Source: Candidatus Aenigmatarchaeota archaeon | Lineage (GTDB): Archaea > Aenigmatarchaeota > Aenigmatarchaeia > CG10238-14 > SCSR01 | Length of the DNA stretch: 31,995 bases | Assembly (NCBI GenBank): GCA_038998005.1 | Contig: JAVZIY010000002.1 | Coordinates: 1 to 31,995 of the forward strand | Direction: 5' to 3' | Shown: positions 1-21,400 of the stretch, piece by piece | Numbering within the stretch: the first letter of the stretch is position 1 | Layout of the letters: each line of letters opens with the position of its first letter | Made by a program: the position numbers and the translations under genes | Notes under the pieces: generated by a model | The model's input: the letters and a program-made list of their open reading frames with translations, nothing else | The model's database searches: none | What the model was told of the DNA's origin: nothing

Positions 1-2135
1 CCAGGATATGTTGCTTTTGGAACACTTATATTAAATCCCTTTAAGCAAAAGCTTCCTTTTTCAATTTCTCCACATTCTTCTAAGCTAGAGTTTGCTTGCC
101 ATCCATTTATAAGCTCTAAGCTTATGTTAACAGAATAAGCAGTTCCATTACCTATATTACTTGCATTAACATTAACTTCAAAGCTATTTCCTTTGTAAAA
201 AGTTACTCCCTCAACTAAAGGATTTTCTGGTTGAATTTTCAAGCTTACATTAGTTTTCCCTGGTTCTGTAGTAAAGGTATCTGTTCCATTTCCAAAATTC
301 CCATTTTTACTTGCATTACATATTAAAGTGTAAGTTCCTTCTTCAGAAGGAGCAGTAAAGTTTACAGAATAAGTTCCATTATTATAGTCAGTTTTATTCT
401 CTACCTCAAAAGAATCATAAGTGCAATTAATTTCTGCTCCTTGTATAAAGGAGTCTTGTCTGTAATTTTTCACGTATATATTGGCTTTTACAATACCACC
501 AATCATAGGCTTTTTATTTTGAATTTCAACAGTAACATTAAGTAAATCAGTTACGTTAAAATTATAAATTGTGAAATTGAGAAATTCATATTTTTCAGAA
601 TAAACTGTAAAGTTAATAGCCCAAATTCCTAGGTAAGCGTCGTTTGTTATGTCAAAAATATTTGAAAAAATTTTATCTCCAGCTTCTTCATCACCATGAG
701 TTCCGTCATCATATAAAATTAAAGTTACATCATCACTTCCAGAAGAAGTTCCCATATCCAAGCTAGCGTTTACATAAGCTGTTAAATTATAAGGATCATC
801 TGTTATGTTTAATTTTATCAAAACACTTTCATTCCTATTGTATATAGTTGCATTCGTTGTTGGCTCTAATGAAACATATAACCTTTCAGGTAAAGATATT
901 GATATTTGGGGAGGGGTTGAATATCTATTAACTATATCTGAAAACTCTGTTGTGCCGCTTGCACCTCCTATTCCAAAATAAACTAGAGATTTTTGATAAA
1001 TCCATGAATTTTGATTTATAAGAGTTTCGTTTAGTTGAACTCCTATTCTTCCTAGCTCAGTATCATTTTCAACAAAGAAATTGTTTGTATTAGTTTCATT
1101 TAAATTCAAAACTCCAACTAAATAGCCTGGAGGGTTCGATGCCCAAACCCATGAATATGGTTCACTCGAGCTCTTTTCTAAATCTGAAATTCCTTGGTAA
1201 AAACTTCTGTTTAAATCAAAAGCCAAGGCTCCTGCTTTTGTGGAATTTCTGTATATCTCATAATTTGCTACATTAGTGAAGTTTTGCTCTATTTTAACAA
1301 AACTTCCATATTCTTCTGGACCAGCTAAGTCATAAAAGTAATATTTCTTTGTCATTTTTCCTTCGTTTGTTTTTTGGTTAGGATTACCAAAAATTATCTC
1401 ATCCCCAACTTGTTTAATAGTTAACCTTATTGGTCCAGGTATAAAATCGATATTATTTAAATAAAATCCCAAGCTTGAGCCGTTTGAATATTCTATATAT
1501 TCTGTAGTTCTATCAATTTCACTTTGTACTAAAAATATTACATCACCTGTAATTCTTTTAACTTTGTAAAGCCCAGAAGTGTTTTCTCCCCTATTTGTAT
1601 CGATATTATAAAATGAGAAAGATGTGTTAACAATTATTTCCTTCCCATCCCAGCTATAACTTAAGTTAGTTGGATAGCTTGGCTTTTCTTTTTTTCCATT
1701 TTCTATTACATCATAATAAACATAAAAAATCCTTTTTTGGTTTGCTTGAGTAGTTCCATTTAGCAAGAAAATTAAAGTTCCGATTGCATTGCTTGAGGAA
1801 TTAAAATCATCACTTTTATCAAACTGGCTTGGAACTTCATAAAGCATATTTCCACTTTCATCATATTCTAATACTCTTGTTGAATTTTCATCAAAAGTTC
1901 CGGAAGGCAAGAAATCTGTAAAATTTATTTCTATTTCAATAGGCCAGTTATTTCTTTCATAAATGCTAGAGTTAATCTCTATTTTAAACCTATACCTCCA
2001 GGAAACATTCCACCATTCAAAATTGCCTTGAGGAGGACCAAAGCCTACAAAAAAGCCTGTTATTCTTAAGGTAAAATAATAAGCTATGACTATAAAAAGA
2101 AGTAAAAATAAACTATAAAAAACAAGCCTTCTCAT
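1..2135 (-). CDS. Partial large secreted/surface glycoprotein (>=711 aa, runs off the left edge; not in the ORF track)
   Basis: I translated most of it by hand from ATG 2135 and saw no stop; the frame at base 1 matches the start codon. It begins MRRLVFYSLFLLLFIVIAYYFTLRITGFFVG (signal/anchor helix), then WWNVSWRYRF (DUF2341-type start motif, 1986..2015), LYDDGTHGDEEAGDKIFS (663..716), Ig-like DYNNGTYSVNFTAPSEEGTYTLICNASK, and NIGNGTAYSVN...ECG...C...VPKATYPG at the edge. Many N-x-S/T sequons. Confidence 0.85.
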   Translation of the reverse strand, partial: MRRLVFYSLFLLLFIVIAYYFTLRITGFFVGFGPPQGNFEWWNVSWRYRFKIEINSSIYERNNWPIEIEINFTDFLPSGTFDENSTRVLEYDESGNMLYEVPSQFDKSDDFNSSSNAIGTLIFLLNGTTQANQKRIFYVYYDVIENGKKEKPSYPTNLSYSWDGKEIIVNTSFSFYNIDTNRGENTSGLYKVKRITGDVIFLVQSEIDRTTEYIEYSNGSSLGFYLNNIDFIPGPIRLTIKQVGDEIIFGNPNQKTNEGKMTKKYYFYDLAGPEEYGSFVKIEQNFTNVANYEIYRNSTKAGALAFDLNRSFYQGISDLEKSSSEPYSWVWASNPPGYLVGVLNLNETNTNNFFVENDTELGRIGVQLNETLINQNSWIYQKSLVYFGIGGASGTTEFSDIVNRYSTPPQISISLPERLYVSLEPTTNATIYNRNESVLIKLNITDDPYNLTAYVNASLDMGTSSGSDDVTLILYDDGTHGDEEAGDKIFSNIFDITNDAYLGIWAINFTVYSEKYEFLNFTIYNFNVTDLLNVTVEIQNKKPMIGGIVKANIYVKNYRQDSFIQGAEINCTYDSFEVENKTDYNNGTYSVNFTAPSEEGTYTLICNASKNGNFGNGTDTFTTEPGKTNVSLKIQPENPLVEGVTFYKGNSFEVNVNASNIGNGTAYSVNISLELINGWQANSSLEECGEIEKGSFCLKGFNISVPKATYP

Positions 2136-2167: not shown

Positions 2168-2782
2168 TTATTCGACTTTAATTTTTTCCTCAATAGCTTC
2201 AAGAACTTTCTTTATTTCACTATCTTTAAAGAGTAAGAGTATTTTAAAACTTATCTTTTCGCTTTTAACTTCAAAATTTGCATTAAGCATATGAACATAA
2301 ATTTTTTCTATGTAAATTGGGCCAAACTCAAATTCTTCTATTGCTCTATAAGCATTTGTATATAGAGAAGGAGAGTTCCAGCTTATTTCTGCTCCAAAGA
2401 GTTTTACAAGATAAGAGATGTAATAACCTTGTAATACATTAGTAAGCTCAAGTATAACTGGTAAATTTTCCTCATCCAAAGCCTTATAATATCCTATCTC
2501 TTTATGCAACAAAAGCTCAACAAGTTTTAATATATCTTTTAAGGAGCAGGCCAGTAGGATGACAGCATTTATTCTTCCGAAAATTTTTGTTGAAATTAAT
2601 GTAAATGATACTTCCTTTGGGTTAAGTAACCTAGGAACTTGGTTAACCCAAATCCTTCTAACAGAAACTGAAGAAATTTTTACATCTTTTCTAATCATTT
2701 TGCTTAAAGCCTCACAAGTTTCTTTTGTCTTCAAAATCCAAATGTCAGTAACTATCTTTTTTTCTATTTTAGAAAGTTTCAT
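2168..2782 (-). CDS. cheC: CheC/CheX-family response-regulator phosphatase
   Basis: 204 aa with CheC-like layout (ALSKMIRKDV; GRINAVILL; LVELLL). The second site is intact as ELTN-x22-P (E-x2-N-x22-P). It lies 4 nt downstream of the receiver gene. Confidence 0.8.
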   Translation of the reverse strand: MKLSKIEKKIVTDIWILKTKETCEALSKMIRKDVKISSVSVRRIWVNQVPRLLNPKEVSFTLISTKIFGRINAVILLACSLKDILKLVELLLHKEIGYYKALDEENLPVILELTNVLQGYYISYLVKLFGAEISWNSPSLYTNAYRAIEEFEFGPIYIEKIYVHMLNANFEVKSEKISFKILLLFKDSEIKKVLEAIEEKIKVE

Positions 2783-2786
2783 TTTT

Positions 2787-3155
2787 TCACTTTAAAGCTC
2801 TTTTAACCCTTTCAACCAAGTCCTTATTTTCAAAAGGTTTGGTTATATAATCAACAGCTTTAAGCTCTTTAAGTTCTTCTCTTCCTATTTCAGACAGTCT
2901 TACAACTGTGAGGAAAATTACTTTTATATCCTTTGTTTTTGGATTTTCCCTTATCTTTTTAACAGTTTCCTTTCCTGTAATTCCTGGCATCATTATATCC
3001 ATAAGAATCAAATCTGGTTTCACTTCTTTTAGTTTTTCTAAACATTCCTTGCCGCTATAAGCAGAAATTATCTCAAACCCTTCCTTTTCAAGAATAGCCC
3101 TAACAAGTTCTACCATATTTTCTTCATCATCTACTATCATCACTTTTTTTTTCAC
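2787..3155 (-). CDS. Stand-alone receiver-domain response regulator (CheY-like REC)
   Basis: 122 aa with all canonical REC residues: VDDE acidic pocket, LILMD phospho-acceptor followed by MMP, FLT, and YITKPF. GTG start; no output domain. Confidence 0.95.
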   Translation of the reverse strand: MKKKVMIVDDEENMVELVRAILEKEGFEIISAYSGKECLEKLKEVKPDLILMDIMMPGITGKETVKKIRENPKTKDIKVIFLTVVRLSEIGREELKELKAVDYITKPFENKDLVERVKRALK

Positions 3156-3971: not shown

Positions 3972-4036
3972 TTTTAAGATAACGCTAAAACTTAAATTTC
4001 TTCAAATTTTTAAGCAAAAAATTTAAAAATTTAATT

Positions 4037-4324
4037 ATGAGGAAGATAGAGCTTAATAAAATTCAGGAGTTAACAAAGAAGATATTCGAGGCTTCTTCTG
4101 AGATAAGTTTAGTTCAAGAAGAACTTGAAAATCTTTTATCTTTAATAGACAAAAATTCAATCGAATATCAAAAAGGAAAAATTTCAAAAGAGATGTTTGA
4201 ATCTAATGAGAAAAGATTAAAGAAGGAAAGTGCTTTGAGGATTAAAAAAATAAACAATCTTGTGAGCGGAGCTTTAAAATTTTTGAAGATGATTGAAAAG
4301 GAAATAAGATCTCAAAAAACTTAG
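4037..4324 (+). CDS. Helical-hairpin protein A (CdvA-like/SHOCT-like G-K-I-S turn)
   Basis: 95 aa of heptad-like helices with central EYQKGKISKEMF. Clear paralogue of the next gene, which supports both being real. Confidence 0.85.
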   Translation: MRKIELNKIQELTKKIFEASSEISLVQEELENLLSLIDKNSIEYQKGKISKEMFESNEKRLKKESALRIKKINNLVSGALKFLKMIEKEIRSQKT

Positions 4325-4333
4325 GTCTTAAAA

Positions 4334-4630
4334 ATGGGTGTAATAAAAAGAATAGATTTGAATTCGATTGAGGAGATTTTAAAGAAAATAATAGGAGCTT
4401 CATCTGAGCTCAAGCTTCTTCAAGATGAGATGGAAGATGTTTTTTCTCATTTAAGCGAGAACGAGAAACTCTTTTCAAATGGCAAGATATCAAAGGATGT
4501 TTACAATGAAAATAAAGCAAGACTTAAGAATGAAGCAAATGAGCTTAAGAAAAAATTAAAAGAAAAAATAGCAGAAGCCATAAAAATCTTGGAAAATGGA
4601 AGAAAGATTATAGAAGCAAACAGAATCTAG
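4334..4630 (+). CDS. Helical-hairpin protein B, tandem paralogue of A
   Basis: 98 aa with central LFSNGKISKDVY. Gapless alignment to A gives 35/94 identities by hand count. 9-nt gap to A. Confidence 0.85.
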   Translation: MGVIKRIDLNSIEEILKKIIGASSELKLLQDEMEDVFSHLSENEKLFSNGKISKDVYNENKARLKNEANELKKKLKEKIAEAIKILENGRKIIEANRI

Positions 4631-6468
4631 ACTTTTATTTTTTTTAGTTCACTTAAAATTTTTTTCTTCCTTTCTTCTCCAGTTACTGTTTTCCTCACTT
4701 TCTTCTTCCCCTTCTTTTCAATTTTTTCAACTTCTTTTTTCAACTTCTCTTTTAAATCTTCTTCTTTTTTCTCGACCTTTTTCTCTTTCTTAGATTCCTT
4801 TGGTTTTTCTTCCTTTTCCTCCCCTTCTTCCTCACTCAACTTCTTCCTTATCTCCTCTTTTTTCTCAATTTTCTCCTCACCAGTTTCTATCCTTTCGCTC
4901 TCCTCAATTTTCTCCTCACCTTCTTTTGTTACTTCTTCTCCAACTCCTTTAACCTTTTTAACTTCCTCCTTTCCCACTACTTCAGGTTTAACTATTTCTT
5001 CCAGTTTCTTCCACTCCTCCTTAAGCTTCCTTTCTATTTCTTCCAGTTTCTTCTCATTAGCTCTTTTAACATTTTCATACTCTTCCTTGCTTATTCTCTT
5101 TTCTCTAAATTGCTCTGACAAGGAATCAAGAAATAGTAAAATGTTTTCCCTTTCCCTTTTAAGCTCGATTATAGCTTCAGGGAGTTTTGTTTGGAGTAGA
5201 GGCAAGACTTTATCTATTTCTTCAAGTCTTTTATTTATTTGAATTATTTCTTCCTTCAAGTCATTCAAATCGCTTTTACTCACATAACCCTCAAGTTTTG
5301 TGTTTAAACCGTCTAATCCTTTACTAAGTTCTTTTATACTTTCATCCATCTCATCTTGCTTTGATTTATAAGTTACAAATTCATCCAAGCTCTTGCTCAA
5401 ATCTATGAAAATCTTTTCTGTTTTTGCTCCAACCCTTTCTATGTAGCGAGTAGCTTCATTAATTTCATCAACCCTTTTTTGAACATCTTTTATTAAGGTA
5501 AGAAGATTCTCTATGTTCCCCATAGCTTTAAGCATCTCATAAATTTTATTTACTCTTTCAGCCAAATCTTCAGATTTCTTTTCTAATTTTTCAAGCGTTA
5601 GTTGATGCTTTTCCAAGTTATCATTAAACTCTCTAAATTTTTTAGTTATTTGCTGGGGTTTAATCTCAGAAATTTCATCCTCGATTTTTTCCATCTTGAT
5701 AGAAGCTTCCTTTAGACTTGCATCAGTTTGGAATACCATAGACCTTAGCTCACCAACGCTTTCAGAAATAGTTCTTATACTTTCGTCAGTTGCCTGTTTA
5801 GCTTCTCTTACAGTATCTATCATAACTTTTAGCTTTTCAATTTCAACCATGGCGTCAGTTTTCACTTCTTCCTTTTCTTTTACTTCTTCAGCTTGCTCTG
5901 GTTTGGGAGAATAAACATTTTCCATACCTTCTTGACTTTCATAAGGGGATTCTTCTTCCTTCTTCTCCTCTTTTTTACCAAATATTCTTTGTAAGAAGCC
6001 AACTTTTGGTTTTTCTTCTTTTTTACTTTCCTTAGATTTTTCAACTTTTTCCTCAACTTTTTTTTCTTCCTCTTTTGGTTTTTCCTCAACATTCTCTTCT
6101 TTTTCCTCCTCTTGCTCCTTAGCTAATTCTTCTTGAATCATTTCCCCTACGCTTTTCTCTTCAGAACTTTCAACTTCTTCCTTCTTTTCAACTTTTTCTT
6201 CACTAATTTCTTCAACTTCCTCCTTTCCTTTTTCCTCAACTTTTTTTTCTATAACCTTTTCCTTAATCCCGAGCTTTTTATTTAACTCATTTAATCTTTT
6301 CAAATATTTTTCCTTAAGTTCCTTGTAGCTTTTTTCAGAAATGTTTGCTTTCCTGTATTCATCCTCTAAATACCCTATCATTTCTTTTAAATCTTTTCTC
6401 TCGTTCTCTAAATCTTCCTTCAAATTCTTTTTTACTTTTTTTGCTTTCTTTTTTGCTATCTCAACCAC
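4627..6468 (-). CDS. Long coiled-coil / Glu-Lys-rich cytoplasmic protein
   Basis: 613 aa. The GTG start overlaps the giant gene's stop by 8 nt. It contains E/K low-complexity arms, a central coiled coil (ISESVGELRSMV...), two EYRKANISEKSY / QFREKRISKEEY motifs and an amphipathic GFLQRIFG. No TM helix or signal peptide. Confidence 0.85.
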   Translation of the reverse strand: MVEIAKKKAKKVKKNLKEDLENERKDLKEMIGYLEDEYRKANISEKSYKELKEKYLKRLNELNKKLGIKEKVIEKKVEEKGKEEVEEISEEKVEKKEEVESSEEKSVGEMIQEELAKEQEEEKEENVEEKPKEEEKKVEEKVEKSKESKKEEKPKVGFLQRIFGKKEEKKEEESPYESQEGMENVYSPKPEQAEEVKEKEEVKTDAMVEIEKLKVMIDTVREAKQATDESIRTISESVGELRSMVFQTDASLKEASIKMEKIEDEISEIKPQQITKKFREFNDNLEKHQLTLEKLEKKSEDLAERVNKIYEMLKAMGNIENLLTLIKDVQKRVDEINEATRYIERVGAKTEKIFIDLSKSLDEFVTYKSKQDEMDESIKELSKGLDGLNTKLEGYVSKSDLNDLKEEIIQINKRLEEIDKVLPLLQTKLPEAIIELKRERENILLFLDSLSEQFREKRISKEEYENVKRANEKKLEEIERKLKEEWKKLEEIVKPEVVGKEEVKKVKGVGEEVTKEGEEKIEESERIETGEEKIEKKEEIRKKLSEEEGEEKEEKPKESKKEKKVEKKEEDLKEKLKKEVEKIEKKGKKKVRKTVTGEERKKKILSELKKIKV

Positions 6469-9400
6469 CTAATCTTTCTATCCTTTTTCCTATAGATTCC
6501 AAGTAAGTTTCTGCCATCCTGAAAGCCCCTGTCTTGAGCTTATCCTTTGCTATGTTAAGCTCAATTTCTATGTCATAAGTGTCAATTTTCTTTTTCTTCA
6601 ATTCTTCAACCTTCTTCTCAAACTCCTCTATTTTCTTATTTAGTTTTACGTATTGATTAATTTCATCATCTGTTAAAGCAAAGGGCGAATGCAGCAATGG
6701 CCTGAAAGCTATGAACCATGGCTTTCCATAGTTGTACTCAGGATTTTGGAATAAACCAGTACCAATTGTTAGTTTAGTAACCTTAGAGGCATAGTCACTT
6801 CCATACTTTGACTTAACTCTTCCAATATCTCCCTCATACTTTGTTCTTAGCTGAATTTCGTTTGCTATGTTTGCTCTAATAGCTCCTTTGAAATCTAGCA
6901 ATACTTGTGATATTAGGAATAAGCCAATTCCCCACTTCCTAAATTCTCTGCATGCCCTTTCTATTGCAACATACCCTCCCTTACCTCCATATTTAGGCAA
7001 TAATCTGTGAACCTCATCATATACCAAAAGCAATTTAATTTCCTTTGACTCAGGAGGTCTCATATCAAATACAGATTGTATGCTTCTCCTGACAAAACCA
7101 TCAAGATCCTCTGGTTTTAATCTATTCATTACAAATACTGTAATTTCACCAGGATTCATGTATTTCTTTATATCAATCTCCATGTTAGGATCATCAACCA
7201 AAACTATATTTGTTTTGAAACCTCTTGCATCTGTTGGCTTCAACCCAAATTGTGGGTATAAGTCTAGCATAGCTTTTAATCGGCATGGCTTCATAAAGCC
7301 TGTCCATTGAGCAGTTGGGTCAAAAACTATAATCGGGACTTTTCTCTTAAGCAATTCTTCAGCACTAACCATTGCTGAAACTGTTTTTCCTGAGCCAGTG
7401 CCACCTGCTGCTATTGAATGCATTATTAGCTGGGATAAATCTATGTAAGCCTTAATATTAGTTTCTGCTATTTTACCAACTTCAATTGCATTCGGTCCTG
7501 GTTGAGGTAATTTCTTGAATTCAACAGGCGATATATACCTTGCTTTTGCTGCTTTAGCAGCTCTGTAAGCTGCAAGCCATTTCATTCCTATGAGCAGGGA
7601 AGGAACTCCAACAAATAGTATTATATAAGTTGCCCAATGCATGAAGATTGTTCTAAGTATGAACAAGGGCAATGGTAAAACTGTTACATCAAAGTTATCT
7701 GAAGATAGGGCATACTTACCACCATACCAATAACTTGCATTAACTTCTATCAAATATCTTCCTTCAGAAGTACCTTCAGGTATTTTTATCTCCCTTCTTA
7801 CAGTATTTACTGTCGATACTGCTAAGGTTTCTTGGGATGTTGCTATTACAATTCTTGGATCCAAAAGAGATCTTACAGTATAAGTTACAGTTATATCTTC
7901 AATTTTTTCTGTTTCACCCATGTTAACAAGCTTTAATTCAAAAGTTAGATTTTGTCCAGGATTAACAGCTTTTGACAAAACAGTAACTTTTACGTCCAGT
8001 AAAGGCTCTAAAACAGGCTTCACTACAATTGTCACAGGAATTCTATCCTCTATATTTTCTGTTTTAACAACTATGTCACCTGTATAAATACCAGGAGCAA
8101 TTGTAAGTGGGGCATAAGCTCTTATTGCAGTGACACCCAATCCTTTTGGAGGAACATTGAAAACAGGCTTTTGAATCGTTAAGAGCTGAAATGCAGGCCC
8201 TTCAACAGTTATCCTTACATCAATTAACTTATCCAAATTGTTTGTGACATCTATGGAAAATATTTTTTCTTCTCCTGGTACCAAGGTAGTTTCAAGAAGT
8301 GTAGACTTAATTTGAACAGGAGCTAAAGTGACGTTTGCTCCTGGGCCAGCTCCTGGCGGAATTGCTGGAATTGCTGGAATTGCAGGTATGGTAATGGCTC
8401 CGGCACCACCTCCAGTCACAGGAACTACTGGTGTTGGAGCAGGTGGCAAATATGGGCAATCACTAGGACAATTTTCGGTTGTTTCTCCATACTCGCTTTC
8501 GCACTCACCATTTCCACAAATAAATTCTGCTAAAACATAAGCTCCGCTTAAATCTGTTAAGTTTGCCTTTACATAGAATGCTGAAATGTTTACAGAGTTA
8601 TCGCTATTATCGCGATTTGGATTTGTTATCCTTACCCAAAGTGAGTTTTGTGCAGTAGTGATTTTTGGTGTCCAATTCCCACCATATCTATAAATTCCAA
8701 GTCTGCTTGGGTCATGAATTGGTACATTGCATCCTCCTTCAACACAATCTGAAAAGTTGAAGTAAAGTATGTAGTATGATGGCTTAAGTATAGTATAAAC
8801 ATAAATTGATTTTAGTACAGAGGTTGAGGTTCTTACAGAAGGAATATTTCCAACAACTACTGGATTGAAATAGTTTTGTATCAAGCTTAAATTATACATT
8901 TCTATTCTGTGAGAAAAGCCATATTCCTTAAGTTGAAGTGCTAAATCATATGATTTGGCATCTATTGTTTCATTGTAAATTCCTGTTGTTAAGTTTGGAA
9001 TAATTTCAAATCTTTTTACTTTTGTTCCAGCATCAAACAAGTTAAAGCTTAAGTCTATAACTGGCTCTCCTAAAAGTTCGATATTCTTAGCATATCCGCT
9101 AAATAAAACAGTAGGATAGATTTCAAATGAAGAAGTTTCTAAATTGCAATTTTCAGATAGGTCGCACGCTTTAATTTCTATTGTATAATTTCCAATTAGC
9201 GAAGTATTTGAGAAGTTGAATTCGTAAAGATAATTATCTACTATCTTTGAAATTAAGCTAAAGTTTATAGTTTCACTTCCACCATTTGGATATGTTAAAT
9301 TTCCAGTTATATTCTTTATTCCACCAGACTCAGTAACGTTTGCTTTTATGCTTATGGTTGAATTTGCAGGAACTCTTACTGGTAATATTAAAGTTATTAT

Positions 9401-12400
9401 TGGTGGAATATTATCCATGTAAACTATGGAATCTTCTTCAATATCACTTCTTACCAAGTATTTAGTCCCATTGTAGCTTGCAGTAACGTTTAAGCTATAA
9501 ACTCTTGCTATGCTTAGCTCAGGAGCATAAAACTTAACTCTCCAAAGGTTTTCTGAGGAATTGAAATAGGAAGAATTAATAACTGATAAAGATGAGAGAG
9601 AAGAATTGAAAATTGAAATATTAAAGCTTACATTTTGAGTTACATAGCTTGAGTTTGCACTTATATTTACTTTTGCTTCTATCAAATCGTTCGGAAGAAC
9701 TCTAGTTAAAGGATTAGCCTTTGTTGGGCTAATTATTTTAACCTTGTATACGCTTACAAACATGCTCACAAAACTTTCTTGCATCTTTATACTTGCATTT
9801 TCTCTAAGCTCTCCTGTAATATTTGAAATTATTTTTCCTGTATAGTTTGTATCATAAGGAATGTCTGGAGAAGAATAGTATATGTGAATTGTCTTTGACC
9901 CAGCATAAGGCAAAATAATTTCTTTTTCACTTAAGTTTAAGTATGGCTTAATATTTCCAGTAACTACTAAACTTAAAGGAATTTCTGAATTTCCTGTATT
10001 TACTATAGTTAAACTTCCAAAATAGCCAGAATCTGCTTGTAAAACGCTTCTATGAATTTCTTTTTCTAAATGTTCCCAAGAAATGTTTATAGGAACATTT
10101 ACGTAAACTTGCAAATAACTTGCCTTTCCATCGTATTTTATTTCTATGCTTCCATTGTAACTTCCTGTTTGATAGTTTGGTGGAACATAAATGCTGACGT
10201 TAACTTTTCTTGTTTCTCCAACTGGAATTAAAGTAAAGTTTTCAGGTTCAAACAAAACATCAAAATCTTCACAAACTTTTCCAGAGCTACAATTTATTGA
10301 AACATTAGTTACATTTTCATTACCTATTGATTTAATTGTAAAGCTTGTATTTCCAGCTGTTCCTCCAGGAATTATTTTTGTTATATTTTCTTCAAGAACT
10401 ATTAGCTTTGGATTTTTAGTTACATTTACTATAATAGTTTTATTACTTGAATTATAAGTATCGTTTAGGTTTCTCCAGCTTGCATTTAAGCTTATGTAAT
10501 AAATTCCTGCCGGAGTTGCATTCGGAATTCTTATTTCAGTTAAGTTTGATTTTACCTGTTTTTTCAATATAGTTCCAAACTCAAAGAATTCTGGAAATGC
10601 AGTTATATTAGAAGCATTTATTGTAAGGTTTGAATCAAATGCTCTTGAGCCTCCGGTGTTGTTTAAAGTTATGTTAACAGTAAAGTTTTGCCCGTAATCT
10701 ATTGTTATATCATCTGCAATTATTTGAGTAGCATTTGGAATTATCTCTAGCCAAGTTGTTTTCGAACCTTCAACTTCTATTGCTTGAGTACAAGCTTCTA
10801 AGGAGCGAGTATCGTTAGCACATATTTTTATTAAATGGATTCCTTCATTCAAGCTAAAGTAGCTTAAATTGTAAATATCTCCAAACTTATCCATGAAATG
10901 AACTTCAATTGTCTCATTTGGCAGAGTTACGTTTATCCATGCTTTATCGACTGCAAAATTATCAGTAATTTTTGCCTGTATTGTAACATTTTCATACCCA
11001 ACTTCAAAAACCCTTGGCTCAACAAAAACATCTTCTATTATTGGTGGTATGTCAGTAACATTCAAAGTAATATTTGTTCTTCTCTCCTTTGGATTGGCAG
11101 GTGTTACATTCCTCACAACTATTTCAACTGTGTAAATTCCTTCTACCGCATTACTTGAAACAGTATAATCTAAACTAACATTTCTCTCCATTAATTTTTC
11201 TAAGTCAAATGCAGTTGTTTGTGGAGCTCCAGAAGGATAGGCAGTAATAAAAGCACTTCCATTCCCTGATTTGAGAATTTCAAAAGTAATTTTCACATTT
11301 CCTATGTTTTTGACAGTTATATTACCTATTTTACCGCTTGTATTTAAGGGAAGCAAGACAGTTCCGAAAGTTTCTGGGTTTCTAATCCAAGAATTGTTTA
11401 CAGGAATTGTTAAGTTCAAAAGCATTTCATCATATCCTGCGTTGCTCGTGTTTGCTCTTAACTTAGTCCAGTAAATTCCTGGAGCTTGACCAGCAGGTAC
11501 TGTTAAGCTAATATGCGATACTATGCTTTGGCCTGCACCCAACAAACCAATTTCACTTGGAACAACTGACAAATAGCAAAGAGGACAATCTAGGAATAAG
11601 TTTCCTCCAACTGTAATTAACTTAGTATCCCTTAAATCATCATTTCCTGCAGCAAAAGTTGTTACATTACCAACATAAGTTGATTTATCATGAGGAGTTT
11701 CCTTAACTATTTCCTTAGGTGAAATTTCAACAACAGGATTTGATGATACTGTTATTGAGGTTGAATTAAAGGTTTGACCTAGAGTATTGTCTGGCTCTCT
11801 CCAACCTGCAATTATATAGCTTGTTATTAATTGTGGAAGGGTTGCTGGTGGAACAGTAACTCTTAAGTCCCAAGTGCAATTTTGATTTGCATATAAAGTA
11901 CCGCATTCCTTCATTGTTTCATTATATGTTAAAGAGCCCAATGGTTCTTCTGTATGGGTTAAATTAACTGAATAGGCTGTTGCTGGTCCTATGTTTGTGA
12001 AAGTTATTCTAACGTCAAAGCTAAAGCCTTTAGTTTGAGTTATGTTATATGCTACAATTTCCTGAGGAACTTGCTCAATTAAACCAAAAGTCTTGCCCCA
12101 AACCTCAATACTTTCTACAAAAGTGCTGTTAATATTATATTCTGGAGCAAAATCTCTTGCATAAATTGAGATATTGTAAGTTCCTCCTATCGGTGGAAGA
12201 TAGCTTACGGAATAAGTTGCCTCGAAAAAGCCAAAGCTTTTTTCAGGAATTGTTATGTTGTTCATAGAAAGAATTATTATAGTTCCATTAGGCATGGTTA
12301 TGTTCGCCCAAACAGAATCTATTTCATAATTATCAACAATAGTTGCTGTAATATTTGTTGAATTTAAGTTAGCCTCTATGCTAGAGTTTGGTATAATTGA

Positions 12401-15400
12401 GGCATTATAAATCTTAGGTGGTTCCAAATCCTTAACCCAAATTGTTTCTATAGCTTCTTTTATATTTGCAGAGTAATACTGAGTTCCATTATCTCCTATT
12501 GTACAATTAAAGGTTATATTACCCTTTTGCTCAGGAATAAAGCTATAGCTTGCATATCCAGATGAATTTGTTTGGTAGCTTCCGTTGTAAATGAATTGTG
12601 TTGAGGGTTCCCACTTATAGGAAAAGTTTACTGTATAATCTGAAATACCTGCTCCAGATTCATGGTCTTTTACTAAGCATGTTGGGTAAAATCCTTGTGG
12701 ATAAGGTATTATTCCTACTGGTGAAATCCAAACAACATCTGATAAGCTTGTTATTAAAACTGAAACATTAGCTATACCATCATCATAATAGCTTTTGCTT
12801 GCAACTGCCATGAAGCTGTGCCATCCTGTTCTTTGCTCAGCAACCTGTGGCTGAGGTAGGTAAGTATCCATACCTTGAGCTATTTGTGCGGTTTCATTGT
12901 ACCATTTAACTATTGGCAATAATTCGGCAAAGCTTTCCCCATTTTCACTACTTCCATTAGCTTTTAATGGAATTGATTGAGATTTTGAATAATAGCTTTC
13001 GTTTAATGGCAATATTATTGTTGTGTTGAGAATTCCTTTTATTGTAATAATCGTTGTATTAGTTAGAGAATCTTCATTTCCAGGCTTGGTTGCATTCATG
13101 TAAATTGTATAAGGTCCAGGGGTAATGCTATCATCAGCATTAAAATTAACAAATGAGCACCACCCGCTTGAATTTGTCAAGCAGCTATTTAAGAAATGAG
13201 TTGAATTGTAAAAGCTTACATTTGCGTTTTCAGCATCTCCTATTCCTGCATCTTTCACATGAACGCTTATATTTGTTTGATGAGGAGCAAAAGAATCGTT
13301 TCTATAAATCCAGCTATACTGTCTAACTATTTGGTCTATTATTAGAGGTCTTGCAAGTTTAACCAAAGTTTCTATCTGCGAGGTTGAAGTATTATAATAT
13401 AAAGTTGAATTGCTTTCTATTGCACAAGTTAAATTGTACCATCCTGCAGCCTCTCCGGTTGTATACCAAACATAACTTGCATAACCATTTTCATTAGTTG
13501 AAACATTTGCTAGAGAAGTTCCATTTTTAAGGAAATTAATGATATAATCAGCAATTGATTGGGAAGTATTGCTATCTCTTACATGGCAAGTTATTGTTAT
13601 TGGGGTTCCTGCAGAGGCTATGGTTCCATTTGCAGGTGATATAGAATCGAGCTCGCTCCATCCATAAATATAAATTGAGCTTGAATTGCTGTTTGGATCA
13701 TAATACTGCCTTGAAGCATTTACGTAAATTGTTTCAGGACCAAGCTTATAGGTTTTAGGAACATTCCAACTTGTATTATAGCCTGAAGCTAATAAATTAA
13801 ATGAAGAGTTGTACCAATTAACAGAAGCATCTCCTATTATTTCGCTGCATTCTCCACTTACGCTTGCATTAAGGCTTGTTATTTTTCCTCTATTAATTAT
13901 TGCTCCATTTAAAGGATAAATTAAAGAGACATTAAGCTGGCCATAAACAGTAAATGTTTGGGAAGAAGTGTTAACTTCTTTATAGCAGATATCAGTTGTC
14001 CCAGCCTTCCAATATTGTATTCCAACATTTGAATTGCAATTTGGATTATAAAATACACTACAATTTCCTAATGTTGAAGTGCAATTTAAGATAACAGTAT
14101 AACTACTTCCATCTTCTGTTATCCATACTGTTCCATTAACATTGCTTGGATAAATTCCGTAATCAGTATCTTTAATTATTAACCTGAAATAAGCTTCATT
14201 ATTCCCTATTCTTCTCACACTTGAATTGCTATCAGCACCAATAGAAAGGTAAACATCATCCCTTTCCAAAGTTATGTTTTTAACTTCTGTTGTAGCTTTA
14301 TATCCATATTCATCACTTGTATTTATCTTGTAGTATAATTTTCCATCTTCTCCATTCAAATAATCTTCACAACCAAACCTAACACTAAAGCTTACTGGCA
14401 TGTTAGAATAGCTAGCTTTAACCCATTTCCAATCAACAAGATTCCATGTTTGATTATCACTACTTTTCCAGAGTGTTATGTTGTTGTAATTCTTATCTAA
14501 ATCTGTTATCTTAACACTAAAGGTATAGAGCTCACCCCAACCACCGAAGCTATGGTCTACTGAAAGGTCAGAAAGAGATGGCTGTGATGCTAAGAAGTAT
14601 GCATTTGTTTTTGTTCTAACACTTGGAGTAGGATAATTCTCATAGTATTGCTTTAATGCTGTCATTTCAACATCATGCCATTCATAAGGTTTTCCAGAAG
14701 TATCAAAAGTACAATTGTAAGTTCCATTTCCCAAATCAGAAACAGGTGTACAACTCCAATCACTATAACCTCTTATATCCTTGAAAGTGACTGTTGCTCC
14801 TGGTATACCAAAGCATTCATCATAAACATAACCTATGAAAGGAACTTTTTCTCCTATGAGGAATGATTGTCCGTCAGGATAGGTTATATTCAGTTGCATT
14901 AGAGTTTTTATAATTAAAGTGAAATTCTGAGTTGTAAATTCTTTATAGTATTGATCATAAACCATACCAGCTTTCCATTTTTGAATTCCAGTAGAATAAT
15001 CACAATTAGGATCAAATGGATATTCAGCAACACCCTCAAAGTCAGAGGAAGTTGAAGTTCCAGAATCAAAATCATTTCCGTTTAAAGTTACCCAGAATGT
15101 TACATTTGCATTTTCTGCAGGAAGGTTTCTGTCTATATCAGTAACATTTACTCTGAGATAAAGAATTTGAGTTCCATTCCTCCACACAATTTCTCCATTT
15201 CCTGTCCATACTTGAATTTGAACATCATCCTTTTCTATCGTGAAATTCTTAGGCAAAGTTTCTGTTTGATAACCTCTTGAATCTTGTGCAACAAATTTAT
15301 AACTCCAATTTCCTTTTTTATTCTGGAATAATCCAGGATTCTTGTAATTTAATATTACACTAACATTTAAAGGTCCTTGTAACTCTGGATTACTTTCATA

Positions 15401-18400
15401 ATCTGATACATTTGCTAGTGTCCAATCAGCATCATTTTCCCATTTTACGTATAAGTATACTGTAACATTATCCAAATCTTCATCAGTAACATTAACCTTG
15501 AAGGTCCATGTTTCTCCCCATCCACCTAGGGTTCCATCTTGCTGCGAACTTACATTTTCTCCGTATAAAATTGGTTTTGTTTTTATGAAGAATGCATTTT
15601 CTTTTAAAGTATAACCGTTGTTATAATAAGTCTTATTAGAAGCTATGCTTATGTTATAAATTCCTGCAACAAGTGTTGAAGTATTTCTCGTGCAATTATA
15701 CTCGCCATTACCCATAGGATAAACAGGTGAGCATTCAAAATTTTGCAAACCATGAATTAATGTTATATTTACTGAAGCATCACTTACTGCCACTGGATAA
15801 TCATCTGTTACGCTAACTCTTATACTAATATTTTCCTCTGGTTTAAGATATTCTGTATAAGTTTCTGGTATAAGCAAATAATTTATTAAATCACCATAAA
15901 CTATTAAAATAAATTCGCTAGAATTTGCATCCAAGTAGCATGAATCTTGGTAAGTTCCTCCTTTCCAGTACTGAGGCCCAACCTCATAATCGCTTTTAGC
16001 ATCAAAGTAAACATTCAAATAGCCTGTTGAATTTGTAGTATTTTGTGTTCCAGAATCATAGTTTGTTCCATCCTTAGTTACAAAAATTCTACCTTGTATT
16101 CCGCTTCCAACATAAGAATTTCTTATACTATCCTTTATCCTTAACACAAGCAAATCTTTCTGATACATGCTTCTATTTGCAATACTTTCATTTCCATAAA
16201 CATACTCTATTTCAACAGGATCTCTTTCTATGTTAGGAGCTGAAATATTAGAAGTGTTAAATAAATTTGTTCCATCATCTATTTCAAATTTAAACCAGTT
16301 TAGAGTATAATTTACATCTTGACAGTTGAAATTAGAAACTGTTATAGAGCAATTTCCTTTTCCACCATAAACTGTTGCATTCCCTCTATAAACCCAAGAG
16401 CTTGAGCTTGGTGTGAATGTAAATAGTTTGCAAGTAACATTATCTAGTTGAATATCATCTATATCTGCGCTAAAGGTGAAATTATTTCCCCAGCCTGCTG
16501 AGCTTGGAATAACTGAGAAGTTCTCAACTAATGGAGGGGTGTTGTTAAGATAAATCCAATCAACAAACAAGCTCGAATTTGAATAGTAGTACTCTTTACT
16601 TGAATTAACTCTAAAGCTATAGTAACCTCCTTTCTTGAAAGTTATATTCCATGTTGAGTTATAAAAGCCTGAGCCCAATTCTTCTACTGGAGTAATATTT
16701 TCAAAAGTTAAGTCTGGCCATCTTGCTTCATGAGTTACGCTTGCACTTTCAACATTTTCTCCACATTCTCCCTTAATGCTAGAAGTTACATTAACAGTTT
16801 TTCCTACTTCTATTTCAATATTTGAGCCATAAGCAGGCTCGATTAAGGAATTCTTTAATTGTCCAATTATTGTAAACCCTTGCTCACCAGAGCTTGCAGT
16901 ATAATAACAAGAATCTTCTAAATTAATCTTCCACTTTTGCATTCCAACAGAAAAGCTACAGTTTGGATCAAAAGTGTAGTTAAAGTAGCCATTAGGCTGA
17001 GACAGTAAGCTTAGGTTAAACAAATAGTTTGAGCTATCTGTTGTGATGTAAATTTTTCCACTCACGTTTTCATAAGTTATTTCTAATCCTCTTATAGTAT
17101 CGACAAAGAGTGAAGCAAACCAAGCAGAATCGCTAAACTCTCTTGCGATGCTTGATTTTGAGTATTTAACATCAGCTATGTCAGCTTGATCCTGAGTTAT
17201 GGTAAAGCTTGATTGCTCTTCGTCAGTGTAATTAAAGTTGTCGCTTGCGTTTATCTTATAACCTTTTATTCCCACATCGCTATAAGTTCTGTTGCAAGTG
17301 AAGTTAACAGGATAGAATTCTAAGTTTGTGCAATTCCCCACTGCTGGTACGCAAGTTTTATAACCAAACAATTCCCAACTTCCTGTTAGGTTTAGCCAGA
17401 GGTATACGTTTATAACCGAGCCAAGCTGTGCATTATAATCTTTATCTTCTATGTCAACTGGGAAATGCCAGTTCTCTCCCCATCCGCTTGTGCCATAATC
17501 TGTATAGAGCGATTTTAAAGTAATTTCAGGTTTAGAAGTCAAGTAATAAGAGTTTATAGTAAAGTTTACTTCACTATCGTTATAATAAGTTTTGAAAGCT
17601 TGGACCGAAACGTTAGTATAGCCATAAAGCCAGGTTGGTTCTTCTTGAGCTGTTGTATCTGCTCTAAAAGTACAGTTGTATATTCCGTTTCCCTCGTAAA
17701 ATATTTGACCTTTTGGACTTTGATCTTCAACACAATCTTTGTTTTGTGGATAAGCTCCCAATTGCTGAGAAATTATTGTAACATTTGCTTCGCTTACTCC
17801 TCCGCATTCGTCTGTAACTTTAACTTTTACCGGAACATCTTCAATTCCTTTCAGATAAAACTTTGCGTTTAAAGGTTGCAATAGCTCAATGTTTAACGGA
17901 TCTGTCGTTATGTTTATCGAAAACTCTGAAGAGTTTGCTGCTTTATAAGCTTCTGCATATAAAACTCCAGCCTTCCACTTTTGTGGGCCAACCTTAAAGT
18001 TACAATCTGGGTCGAACTGGCCTGAAGAAGTGTTTATATAGCCTGAAGAGAAAGTTGAAGGAATTGGAGTAAAGTTGAAAGCTAAATTGTTAGTTACCCA
18101 TATTCTTACGTTTGTACTTAGAATTCCGCTTGTTACATCACTTCCTTTATCTTTGTCAAAAACTTTCACACTTAAAGTTTGGTAATTATTTTCAGGTCTG
18201 TGAACAGAAGTATTATTTCCTTCAACATGAATTAAAAGCAAATCATCTTTTGTTATAGTAAAGTTCCCATTTCCTATTTCATAAGTATTGTTAACAAAAT
18301 CTTTTGTCGCGTTGTTATAAATATCTTTTACTTCGCTAACGTTAAACTTGAAAATATGGGAACCTAATCCTGGGTTTGAATAGGTTGACCATGCTGGTAT

Positions 18401-21400
18401 AACAAATGTAACTGTCACATTTTTTCCTTGAACGCTTGAGTTTGTCATACTTGATAAAGGTTGAGCCCAGTCGCCCCCAGCTTGGCTTGAGTTCACCCAA
18501 AGTTTAACTTCCAAAATATCATAATCTTCATCAGTAGCGTTAACTCTAAAGTACCAAGTTTCTCCCCAGCCTCCATCTCCTAAATTCCCAAGATAGTCTC
18601 TACTCTCATACCACCATTCTGTTGTTAGTACTGGCTTGGTTTCAACCCAGAAACCTTTCTGCCAGATAACAAAAGTTTCTAGGGAAGAGTTTGAGTTGTA
18701 GAAGTTTGCGGAAACATTTACACTAGAATTCCATCCTTGTGCTCTGAAGTTGGTTGTGTTAAGTTTGCAAGAATAATTACCATCACCGAGGTTTATTACT
18801 TCTTCACACCACTTAACTTCTGAATCTTTTATTCCACTGAAATTGAGTTGAGCATTAGTTATAGCTAAACCACATTCATCTTTTATCGATGCATTGAAAG
18901 AAACAAGTTGACCATCTTCATAATCACTTCTCAAGTATTTCTCTCCTTTTGGTGAAGTTATGGTTGGAATTAAGTCACCGATTATATAGCTTGTGAAATT
19001 GCTTGAAGCATTTATATCTAAATAACAAGAATCAGTTACTCCAGCAATCCAGTACTGCTTTCCTATGCTATAAGAGCAGTCTGGGTTGAAGTAATAACTT
19101 GCATTTCCAAAGCTATCAGTTTGATTTATAATATCAACTCTATAATTGGTAGAATCGTTAGTAACCCAGAAGCTTACGTTTACGTTAGAAGCATAGCTTA
19201 AGTTTTCCAAATCAAAAACGTTTACAGCTAATCTTACAACTTGATTTATTCCAGAACTTCTATTAACATAGCTATTATCACCAACTATATAACTAATTAA
19301 AACTTGGGATTCAGTTATGTTTGGCCCTTGAATAGCATCAGTGAACCAGGCATTCTCTGGTTCTCCATTTTCAATTTGCCACTTAAACCATTTTGCCTTA
19401 CTTACAATCCACTCTTGACCTTCTGGTTTATCTATATCTTCGCATGTGAAATTATGCAAAGCAACCCAACAAGTTCCTTGTGTAGGAATTCCAGGAGTTC
19501 CTTGAATTATATAACTTCCTTTATACTCCCAAGTTTGCTGATTATCCTTGCTAATAAACAAAGAGCAATTTATAGTATCTCCTTCCTGATCATAAACTGC
19601 TATACTGTAATTGAAAATTCTTGACCAACCTGCTTCGCTTGGGTTAACAATTGGTATAGATGTGTTAGTAGCGTTCCAGTTAACAAGCTGGAACCAGTTT
19701 TCATAAACTGTTGAATTTTGATTGAAATACTCTTTTGTTGAGTTTAACCTAATGCTCCAAAATCCTTCCTTCTTGCCAGTAGAATTCCAAGTGCAGTTAT
19801 ACCAACCTTGATAAGAGTTGTTTATTGGCAAACAAGATTCCCAAGTTTCTAAAGGACTTTTAAGCTCAATCGTATAGCTTGAAGCGTTTATAACAGGATT
19901 TTCATCTCCTCTATAAGCTGAACAATCGCTTAGTGTAGTGAAGTTAATTGATATTAACTCAGTAACATTATAAACTGAACCAAAGCTTGGTTGGTTTAGT
20001 TGATTCTTTAGCTGACCTTTAATCTCGAAAGTTCTTGGAGTCATGTTTTTTACTTCATAACAAGAATCTAAGCTGCCACCTTTCCAGTATTGGATTCCAA
20101 CAGAATAACTACAATTCGGATCAAAACCATAAGTAACATAACCAGAAGAGTTTGTTGTCAAGTGTCTTGTGTAATCCCAGCTTGTTTGGTCGCTAGCATT
20201 AGTTGTAAACCAGATGCTTGCGTTAACGTTAGCAGGAACATAACTATTATTGTCTTTATCTTTTATTCTAAAGACAAAAATCCCTTCTTTTGAACCTTCT
20301 CTTTCTATGATATTAGGTTCTGTAATTTCATTTGTTGGAAATTCTACATCGTCTTGGCTTACTGTTACGCTATCAGAAGCTTCTACCTTATAATTCCAAA
20401 CATCTGAAACATTCCATTTGTAAGCTCTTGTTCCTATATGTTGGCAATTAAAGTCATGCTGAGTGAAGCTTATCTCAGCCCATTCAGAGCATGCCGGAGC
20501 ATAGCATAAAGTTGAATTAACTAATTGGTAGCCTGAGCCAAAATCTATCCATAAGCTTATGTTTAGTTTTTCAAATCCAAGTTCAGAAATTCCTTGATCT
20601 ATATCTCTTACTTGAGCAGAGAAAGCCCAGAGTTCGCCCCATCCTCCTGGGTTTACTGTATCTGAAGTTGTTACTGATAAGCCTTGAATTTGTGGATTTG
20701 TTACCAGAACAGAAGCGTTTATTTTTGTTTTGATTTCAGAACCTTCATAAAACTCTTTTGATGCTTCCATAGTTGCGTTATAATAACCAAGACTCCAGGT
20801 TGAGCTTGAAACAAAGCTACAATTATACCAACCATTTCCTTCATCATTTATACCAACATCATCTGGGCAACCATAGCTAAAAACTCCTTTCACAGTTTTT
20901 AGGCTCACTTCTGCTCCGCTCACTAAACCACAATCATCGCTAACATTTCCCCTTAACAAAATTGTATCGATAGCTCTCCTGAAAGTTTCGTTGTTTGGCC
21001 TTTGAATTTCTACTTGAAGAGGATAGGTTGTGGTGTTTAAGAAGAAAACTGATGAATTAGTTGTTTTATAGCATGTAGAACCAAACTCTGTTTTCCATCT
21101 CAAAGGTCCAATTTTGTAGTTACATCTTGGAGAGGTAGGAAAGATATCAGTTAAGTAACCTCCAGTCTCTGTCCCTGTCGTTATAGTTTTATCAACTGCA
21201 TAGCTGTTTACATCATAAGGATTTGTTGTGACATAAAATCTTGCAGTTCCAGGTTCGCTACTAACAGAAATATTTCTATCTGTATCAATAACTTGAACTC
21301 TTAGTGTAGCGTTGCTTTGAGAAGGAGCTACACTTCTGTTAACTACACTATTATTTCCTTCGACATAAATTACTGCGATATCATTCTTCTCTAAAGTTAA

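Follow-up and report, generated by a model that had tools for sequence, protein, structure and literature searches.

Giant membrane-anchored proteins that carry a VirB4/HerA-like ATPase at their C-terminus were previously described in nanohaloarchaea and other DPANN archaea under the name SPEARE (PMC10266531; Hamm et al. 2019, as cited in PMC10266531). In nanohaloarchaea, the gene that follows the giant encodes a second VirB4-type ATPase, and a role in secretion has been proposed (PMC10266531). The stretch of DNA analysed here (hereafter the window, 31,995 bp) is the whole of contig C2 of a metagenome-assembled genome (MAG) of a Candidatus Aenigmatarchaeota archaeon (genome G000; 626 kb, 70 contigs, 81% complete, about 31% GC). 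It encodes one such giant (6461..31738, reverse strand), whose 8,425 amino acids (aa) include a single transmembrane (TM) helix (aa 8039-8057), a Walker A motif at aa 8112 and a DUF87/HerA match, and, at its left edge, an open reading frame (ORF) called P0001 (3..2135, reverse strand). The protein to which this ORF belongs, hereafter the companion, is an Ig-rich surface protein devoid of any motor, and its gene is the third of a conserved cassette that comprises, in this order, the giant (a stalk joined to a HerA/VirB4-type ATPase), a cytoplasmic coiled-coil protein and the companion. To our knowledge, giant ATPase-anchored proteins are the main suspects for host attachment and exploitation by DPANN archaea and have no known partners, and we know of no companion-plus-adaptor arrangement described for them. 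In the literature searched, we found no report of the function of the companion family, of its link to the giant, of the block that both proteins share, of the tail motif or of the cassette.

The earlier note on this DNA had reported a large ORF running off the edge at 1-2135 and had expected the gene to continue for several kb, and both claims proved to be correct. The frame starts with an ATG at 2135 and stays stop-free over 711 codons down to base 3, where it is ended by the contig end, the window being an entire contig with no sequence left of base 1. The rest of the gene, about 3.7 kb more, was traced to another contig of the same MAG (C51, 5,102 bp) by tblastn searches of the MAG with P0001 and the last 2,025 aa of the giant; it consists of a frame open at the contig start (L002, C51 3..3407, forward strand, 1,134 codons). 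One database homologue of 1,955 aa (P0009) matches the window ORF over its residues 1-710 (60% identity) and the C51 ORF over its residues 817-1955 (70%). In genome G004, the orthologue is one intact gene of 1,956 codons that spans both pieces collinearly. Its upstream neighbours, encoding a CheC-like protein of 211 aa and a receiver-domain protein of 123 aa, correspond to positions 2168..3155 of the window, and its convergent downstream neighbour (796 aa) is 63% identical to the second ORF of C51. Furthermore, the hidden Markov model (HMM) of the family (1,945 positions) matches C2 over positions 1-707 and C51 over positions 814-1945, with one match each in the MAG. C51 also carries a 107-nt direct repeat (bases 1-107 and 682-788, 99% identical), which encodes the end of one of the Ig-like domains ('B', see below) and probably accounts for the assembly break between C2 and C51. 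The approximately 106 intervening codons (about 0.3 kb) were found on no contig of the MAG, and the ends of C2 and C51 do not overlap. Taken together, the collinearity of the orthologues, the synteny of both flanks, the HMM positions and the repeat at the break lead us to conclude with high confidence that a single gene of about 1,950 codons runs through the reverse complement of C2, about 0.3 kb of missing sequence and C51 3..3407. The same gene is likewise fragmented in four other assemblies (G003, G005, G011 and G028). This systematic fragmentation in MAGs means that gene catalogues undercount it.

The search for homologues of P0001 retrieved 180 proteins, nearly all of 1,900-2,000 aa, besides smaller classes near 1,720 and 2,090 aa. 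Among the 120 full-length homologues that were analysed, 94 lie between 1,900 and 2,000 aa, revealing a tightly conserved length. All named homologues come from Candidatus Aenigmatarchaeota; they are recorded at NCBI as 'NEW3 domain-containing protein [Candidatus Aenigmatarchaeota archaeon]', and their Pfam content consists of PF10633, PF01835 and PF22680, never of PF01935. The companion is therefore an orthologue of an existing, uncharacterised database family ('NEW3 domain-containing protein' or 'uncharacterized membrane protein', about 1,720-2,100 aa; P0005, P0007, P0009 and P0011) that has been split here by an assembly gap. These proteins are collinear with it over their full length (40-70% identity) and share its N-terminal helix, C-terminal stalk, TM helix, tail and Pfam content, without any essential difference.

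From the outside inwards, the companion would consist of (i) an N-terminal hydrophobic helix, (ii) a head that combines a beta-sandwich with a mutarotase-like supersandwich, (iii) a rod of some twelve Ig-like domains (choice-of-anchor-X and Big-like domains, NEW3 units in the order [A B][A B C D], and MG2), (iv) a helical stalk of about 90 aa, (v) one TM helix and (vi) a cytoplasmic tail of about 75 aa. The window encodes the first of these parts, all on the reverse strand. The N-terminal helix (aa 1-24, 2064..2135), detected by a hydropathy scan and modelled by AlphaFold as a helix over residues 2-24, is either a signal peptide or a signal-anchor, cleavage not being decidable. It is followed by the head (aa ~45-408, 912..2003), in which AlphaFold2 (AF2), VIA-align and Foldseek recognize a small beta-sandwich and a galactose-mutarotase-like beta-supersandwich with one closing helix. 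Next come an Ig-like domain (aa ~410-530, 546..908; AF2 strands) with the acidic DDG..GD motif of 'choice-of-anchor X' domains (NF041940, E 8.6e-10, residues 472-498) and a second one (aa ~533-625, 261..539; AF2) that weakly resembles invasin-D3/Big-like domains (PF09134, E 0.006, below the cut-off). The last one is a NEW3-type domain, 'A0' (aa ~630-711, 3..248), cut by the contig end and recognized by BLASTP against the giant, by a six-frame PF10633 match at 9..194 and by positions 4-92 of the block HMM described below (E 2e-26). The AlphaFold2 model of the 711 aa (57 sequences, pLDDT 93) shows the helix at 2-24, an all-beta region at 45-408 with its closing helix and three Ig-like domains; the head folded alone reaches a pLDDT of 83.5.

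The best VIA-align matches of the head are the PL26 rhamnogalacturonan lyase 5xq3 (Z 18.6, 312 aligned residues) and the alpha-mannosidase Ams1 7dd9 (Z 18.6), followed by galactose mutarotases (Z 14-17) and the YidC P1 domain (Z 15.8), in agreement with Foldseek; these matches (Z 14-18.6 over 190-312 aligned residues) concern fold and not function. The head thus has the fold of the beta-supersandwich modules of the PL26 lyase (5xq3), of the C-terminal domains of GH38 alpha-mannosidases (7dd9, 6b9o) and of YidC P1 (3blc); however, with only 6-12% sequence identity, this is a fold resemblance and not family membership. No PDB sequence matched a profile of the head at E<=1. Since the supersandwich fold is typical of sugar-binding modules, the modelled head is probably glycan-binding. 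With the whole 711-aa model, Foldseek yielded no more than unspecific matches to tandem Ig domains, namely those of macroglobulins, complement and S-layers. The head had suggested, by its 'WWN.SW.YR' motif, a likeness to DUF2341 (PF10102), and this candidate was rejected because neither 10 orthologous heads nor P0001 matched that Pfam family at E<=10.

The C51 piece contains PF10633 (E 1e-21, two stretches) and a single MG2 domain (PF01835, E 4e-10), and its frame ends with a K/E-rich helical stretch that leads into a strong TM helix (aa 1030-1061); 'RKK' follows, and then a tail of 73 aa with a conserved 'EGIIS..AY.EMKK' helix pair. The companion contains 4.2-5.2 sequons per 100 aa (other ORFs, 0.7), all of them outside the tail; its pI is 4.5-5.1. 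On the basis of this sequon density, the ectodomain is judged to be densely N-glycosylated. Two further candidates were rejected. An alpha-2-macroglobulin/complement thioester protein does not fit, as CxEQ is absent from both pieces and from the G004 orthologue and no more than one MG2 domain is present. A likeness of the tail to SHOCT (PF09851) was not retained either, since neither the tail nor the 613-aa coiled-coil protein is hit when the genome is searched in six frames at E<=10, and a Pfam scan of the tail gave nothing relevant. The anchoring cassette is reused elsewhere in the MAG: a 426-aa protein (C18 7875..9152, reverse strand) matches the companion from its last NEW3 domain through the helical stalk to the TM helix (HMM 1583-1878, E 1e-28) and lacks the tail motif.

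Besides this architecture, the companion shares a specific block of about 410 aa with the giant. BLASTP of P0001 against the giant gave one clear hit, in which residues 587-711 match residues 6507-6635 (32% identity over 130 columns, E 1e-9); the matched stretch corresponds to 11834..12220 of the window and is also found by tblastn at genome scale (E 4e-8). A block HMM built from aa 30-440 of the C51 frame and 114 orthologues was searched against all ORFs of at least 100 aa of the MAG. It found only the C51 frame, the truncated extra copy that ends P0001 and two full copies in the giant, copy 1 at aa ~6543-6965 (10844..12112, reverse strand; hmmsearch E 7e-62) and copy 2 at aa ~6987-7406 (9521..10780, reverse strand; E 2e-50). 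The full-length family HMM recovers the two copies with E 8e-60 and 2e-47. The four-domain order is [A B][A B C D] in the companion and [A B C D][A B C D] in the giant. The full-length HMM detects two weaker matches in the giant, for positions 1177-1290 and for positions 1510-1611 (just before the giant's TM helix), and none for positions 1-707; therefore, the heads of the two proteins differ. These results bear out three claims of the earlier note: the window gene encodes a second large surface protein paralogous to the giant's stalk (through the block and the two smaller domain matches), its last visible domain aligns with the giant at about 11835..12060, a span contained in the BLASTP match, and the corresponding domain of the giant lies, as stated, about 1,850 aa before its C-terminus. 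Ordinary NEW3 domains also occur in other small proteins of the MAG; the full block is found only in the companion and the giant. This paralogy is real and specific, the match being far beyond chance. In the block tree, the companion copies (four genomes) form one clade and the giant copies 1 and 2 two others, copy 1 of this giant grouping with copy 1 of the G006 giant. Copies thus group by protein and position and not by genome. Identities are 27-32% between paralogues and 53-70% between orthologues. Since the clades follow protein and position, the duplication of the block is ancient, without sign of recent exchange. The three length classes of the companion (about 1,720, 1,950 and 2,090 aa) fit the loss or gain of one [A B] unit.

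A second feature links the companion to the cassette, and specifically to the gene that lies right after the giant. This gene (4627..6468, reverse strand), which overlaps the giant's by 8 nt, encodes a K/E-rich coiled-coil protein of 613 aa without a TM helix. An HMM made from the last 62 residues of the companion family and searched against the whole MAG recovered the companion's own tail (E 7e-21) and two copies of the motif in the 613-aa protein (E 2e-10 and 1e-7), at aa 9-66 (6271..6444) and aa 431-483 (5020..5178), with no other significant match in the MAG and none to the cytoplasmic end of the giant. Tail motifs are likewise present in coiled-coil homologues of 460-502 aa in G006, G023, G011 and G017. 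Two helical paralogues of about 100 aa encoded on the opposite strand (3989..4627, forward) display a 'GKIS..[YF]' turn that resembles the tail motif; the tail HMM gives them E 0.66 or worse.

We surveyed the linkage of the giant and the companion in 31 related genomes, a giant-type C-terminus being defined by an identity of at least 54%. All 13 genomes with such a C-terminus also match the N-terminal companion query: 11 carry clear orthologues, one (G013) a fragment of 56 residues that abuts a contig end, and one (G017, whose giant-type C-terminus is 54% identical by BLASTP and 55% in a separate survey) a short variant. The sole genome with a companion alone is 76% complete. Leaving aside the variant pair of G017, 12 genomes have both orthologues; in 10 of them (G000, G004, G005, G006, G011, G013, G019, G023, G027 and G028), the companion lies 1.3-7.4 kb downstream of the giant and shares its contig and strand. 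Across five families, the order and orientation of the two genes are conserved, and within genera g18, g21 and g1 the giant and the companion are present or missing together.

Furthermore, a smaller paralogous set of the three genes was found in G011 (L016, C16) and G017 (L017, C65), G011 carrying both the large and the small set. It comprises an ATPase-anchored protein of 1,167-1,258 aa, a coiled-coil protein of about 500 aa with two tail motifs and a short companion of 1,121-1,313 aa, in which HMM positions 3-169 are joined to positions 1177-1944, tail included, without positions 170-1176. Given the co-occurrence, the gene order, the specific tail motif and the paralogous small set, the giant, coiled-coil and companion genes behave as a unit.

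Several other observations concern the giant and the neighbourhood of the cassette. The giant varies from 4,530 to 14,236 aa, with open frames of 14,236 codons in G004 (C1, around 56735..~99000) and 11,262 codons in G021 (C2), and the companion stays near 1,950 aa. A further class of proteins of 2,000-3,300 aa (G012:C16, G021:C20, G026:C22, G029:C11 and G030:C2), whose C-terminus is 44-48% identical to the TM and ATPase part of the giant, is present both in genomes that have the companion family and in genomes that lack it. Immediately upstream of the companion gene, on the same strand and ending 32 nt before its ATG, lie the genes of the receiver-domain protein (2787..3155; PF00072, E 2e-29) and of the CheC-like protein (2168..2782; NF041093, E 1e-13, below the cut-off). 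This pair is kept upstream of the companion in G004, which belongs to the same genus, and is absent at the corresponding place in G023 and G006. On the other side of the gene, C51 carries a second surface-protein gene (L002, C51 3408..5102, reverse strand), convergent with the companion and cut by the other end of the contig (564 aa seen); its G004 orthologue (796 aa) combines CarboxypepD_reg, MG2 and NEW3 domains with a TM anchor at the C-terminus.

The window ORF is the 5' third of a single surface-protein gene of about 1,950 codons. To judge by its fold, by the order of the genes and by the modules that it shares, the product of this gene is most likely a passive glycan-binding fibre of the giant's cell-contact apparatus, and we give this reading a probability of roughly 0.6. 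The block of 410 aa shared outside the cell would place the giant and the companion in one extracellular assembly, and the companion's tail could dock on the coiled-coil protein through the two tail-like motifs of the latter. The glycan-type head, the shared extracellular block and the shared cytoplasmic motif would thus point to defined contacts. More tentatively, the giant, the coiled-coil protein as an adaptor and the companion might form a three-part surface machine, in which the adaptor would tie the fibres inside the cell beside the giant's ATPase and the receiver/CheC-like pair may set its state in this genus; we consider this extension possible, though on balance doubtful. Several points weigh against the proposed fibre: (i) the two pieces are joined by orthology and synteny and not by reads, with about 106 codons missing from the assembly, (ii) the giant and the companion lie on different contigs in G021 and G029, (iii) the related genomes are not independent, so that the count of 13 out of 13 overstates the support drawn from co-occurrence, and (iv) the supersandwich fold is no proof of sugar binding, being shared by the YidC P1 domain.

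The companion could instead be an S-layer or main envelope protein, a string of Ig-like domains on a coiled-coil stalk whose linkage to the giant would be merely genomic. Its beta-sandwich domains, helical stalk, C-terminal TM helix, sequon load and acidic pI resemble those of SlaB-, tetrabrachion- and csg-type proteins, its length is tightly conserved, and S-layer chains of N. maritimus and H. volcanii are among the generic Foldseek matches; however, these match no better than macroglobulins do. An S-layer protein would be expected throughout the lineage that bears the coat, but the presence of the companion tracks that of the giant. No companion was found in five relatives that are at least 90% complete (G007, G008, G010, G022 and G030) and G026 gave a weak domain match only, although the incompleteness of MAGs weakens this distribution test. 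Neither PF05123 (S_layer_N) nor PF07752 (MSTP/DUF1608) was detected by Pfam scans of the two companion pieces, and no S-layer gene of these two families was found in the 81%-complete MAG, which would leave room for the companion in that role; this absence neither proves nor excludes it and is best taken as neutral. A preprint assigns the S-layers of Aenigmatarchaeota to an MSTP-like family, a predicted type unrelated to the companion (10.1101/2024.05.28.596244). Overall, we regard an S-layer function as unlikely.

Improbable to a similar degree is an independent adhesin that would merely share common Ig-type domains with the giant, their adjacency being functionally meaningless. NEW3, MG2 and Big-like domains are indeed widespread, and NEW3 domains occur in other proteins of this MAG (on C25, C4 and C18 and in the second ORF of C51). 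However, common domains explain neither the restriction of the full block to the companion and the giant in this genome, nor the gene order and strand kept across five families, nor a tail motif specific to the gene after the giant, nor the duplication of the whole three-gene set as a unit.

It is very unlikely that the pieces on C2 and C51 come from two different paralogous genes that both happened to be cut at corresponding points. In favour of this reading, C2 and C51 have no overlap at their ends, and about 106 codons occur nowhere in the assembly. Against it, the MAG contains exactly one N-terminal and one C-terminal piece, and these meet at HMM positions 707 and 814; the two flanks agree with those of the single-copy locus of G004, the internal repeat would account for the break and the same gene is fragmented in four other assemblies.

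Lastly, the earlier note had suggested that the gene may end, like the giant, in a TM helix and an ATPase, giving a family with a shared stalk and motor and interchangeable N-terminal heads. Neither the C51 piece nor the G004 orthologue shows a P-loop domain or PF01935 (DUF87) in Pfam and NCBIfam scans, and a Walker A motif is absent from the C51 piece and from the last 500 aa of the 120 full-length homologues (120/120), in which the sequence after the last TM helix is mostly 70-90 aa long. A second stalk-motor fusion with a TM helix, a DUF87/HerA ATPase and an exchangeable head is thus refuted: stalk domains are indeed common to both proteins and ATPase-anchored paralogues of 1,200-3,300 aa exist in relatives, but in the C-terminal piece, as in each of the 120 homologues, the sequence ends with a TM helix and a short tail (73 aa here, after the stalk) without a P-loop, and the small paralogous sets again keep the ATPase-bearing and head-bearing proteins as separate genes. 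Neither the ATPase ending nor the family built on a shared motor survives, as no DUF87 or Walker A was found in the 120 homologues. The earlier note had named as fatal to that proposal an ordinary anchor with no P-loop domain combined with a lack of further similarity to the giant; the first half of this combination was observed and the second was not, the companion resembling the giant well beyond its first matching domain. A false lead is thereby replaced by a conserved three-gene set that can be tested.

The fibre proposed here can now be set against described systems. Like the SPEARE-like giants, the companion is an Ig-rich, membrane-anchored surface protein of DPANN archaea, and it has a block in common with their local representative of 8,425 aa; unlike them, it is devoid of ATPase, four times shorter, of conserved length and endowed with a different head. 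The gene order after the giant also differs, since a second VirB4-type ATPase is found there in nanohaloarchaea, whereas here a coiled-coil protein comes first and then the companion. In SlaB of Sulfolobales and tetrabrachion of Staphylothermus, beta-sandwich domains sit on a coiled-coil stalk, with a TM helix at the C-terminus. The companion is organized in the same way, its beta-sandwich domains being followed by a helical stalk and a single C-terminal TM helix, and it likewise has a heavy potential for N-glycosylation. However, this likeness is one of architecture and not of sequence, and the companion differs from these proteins by its patchy distribution, its tie to the giant and its conserved tail motif.

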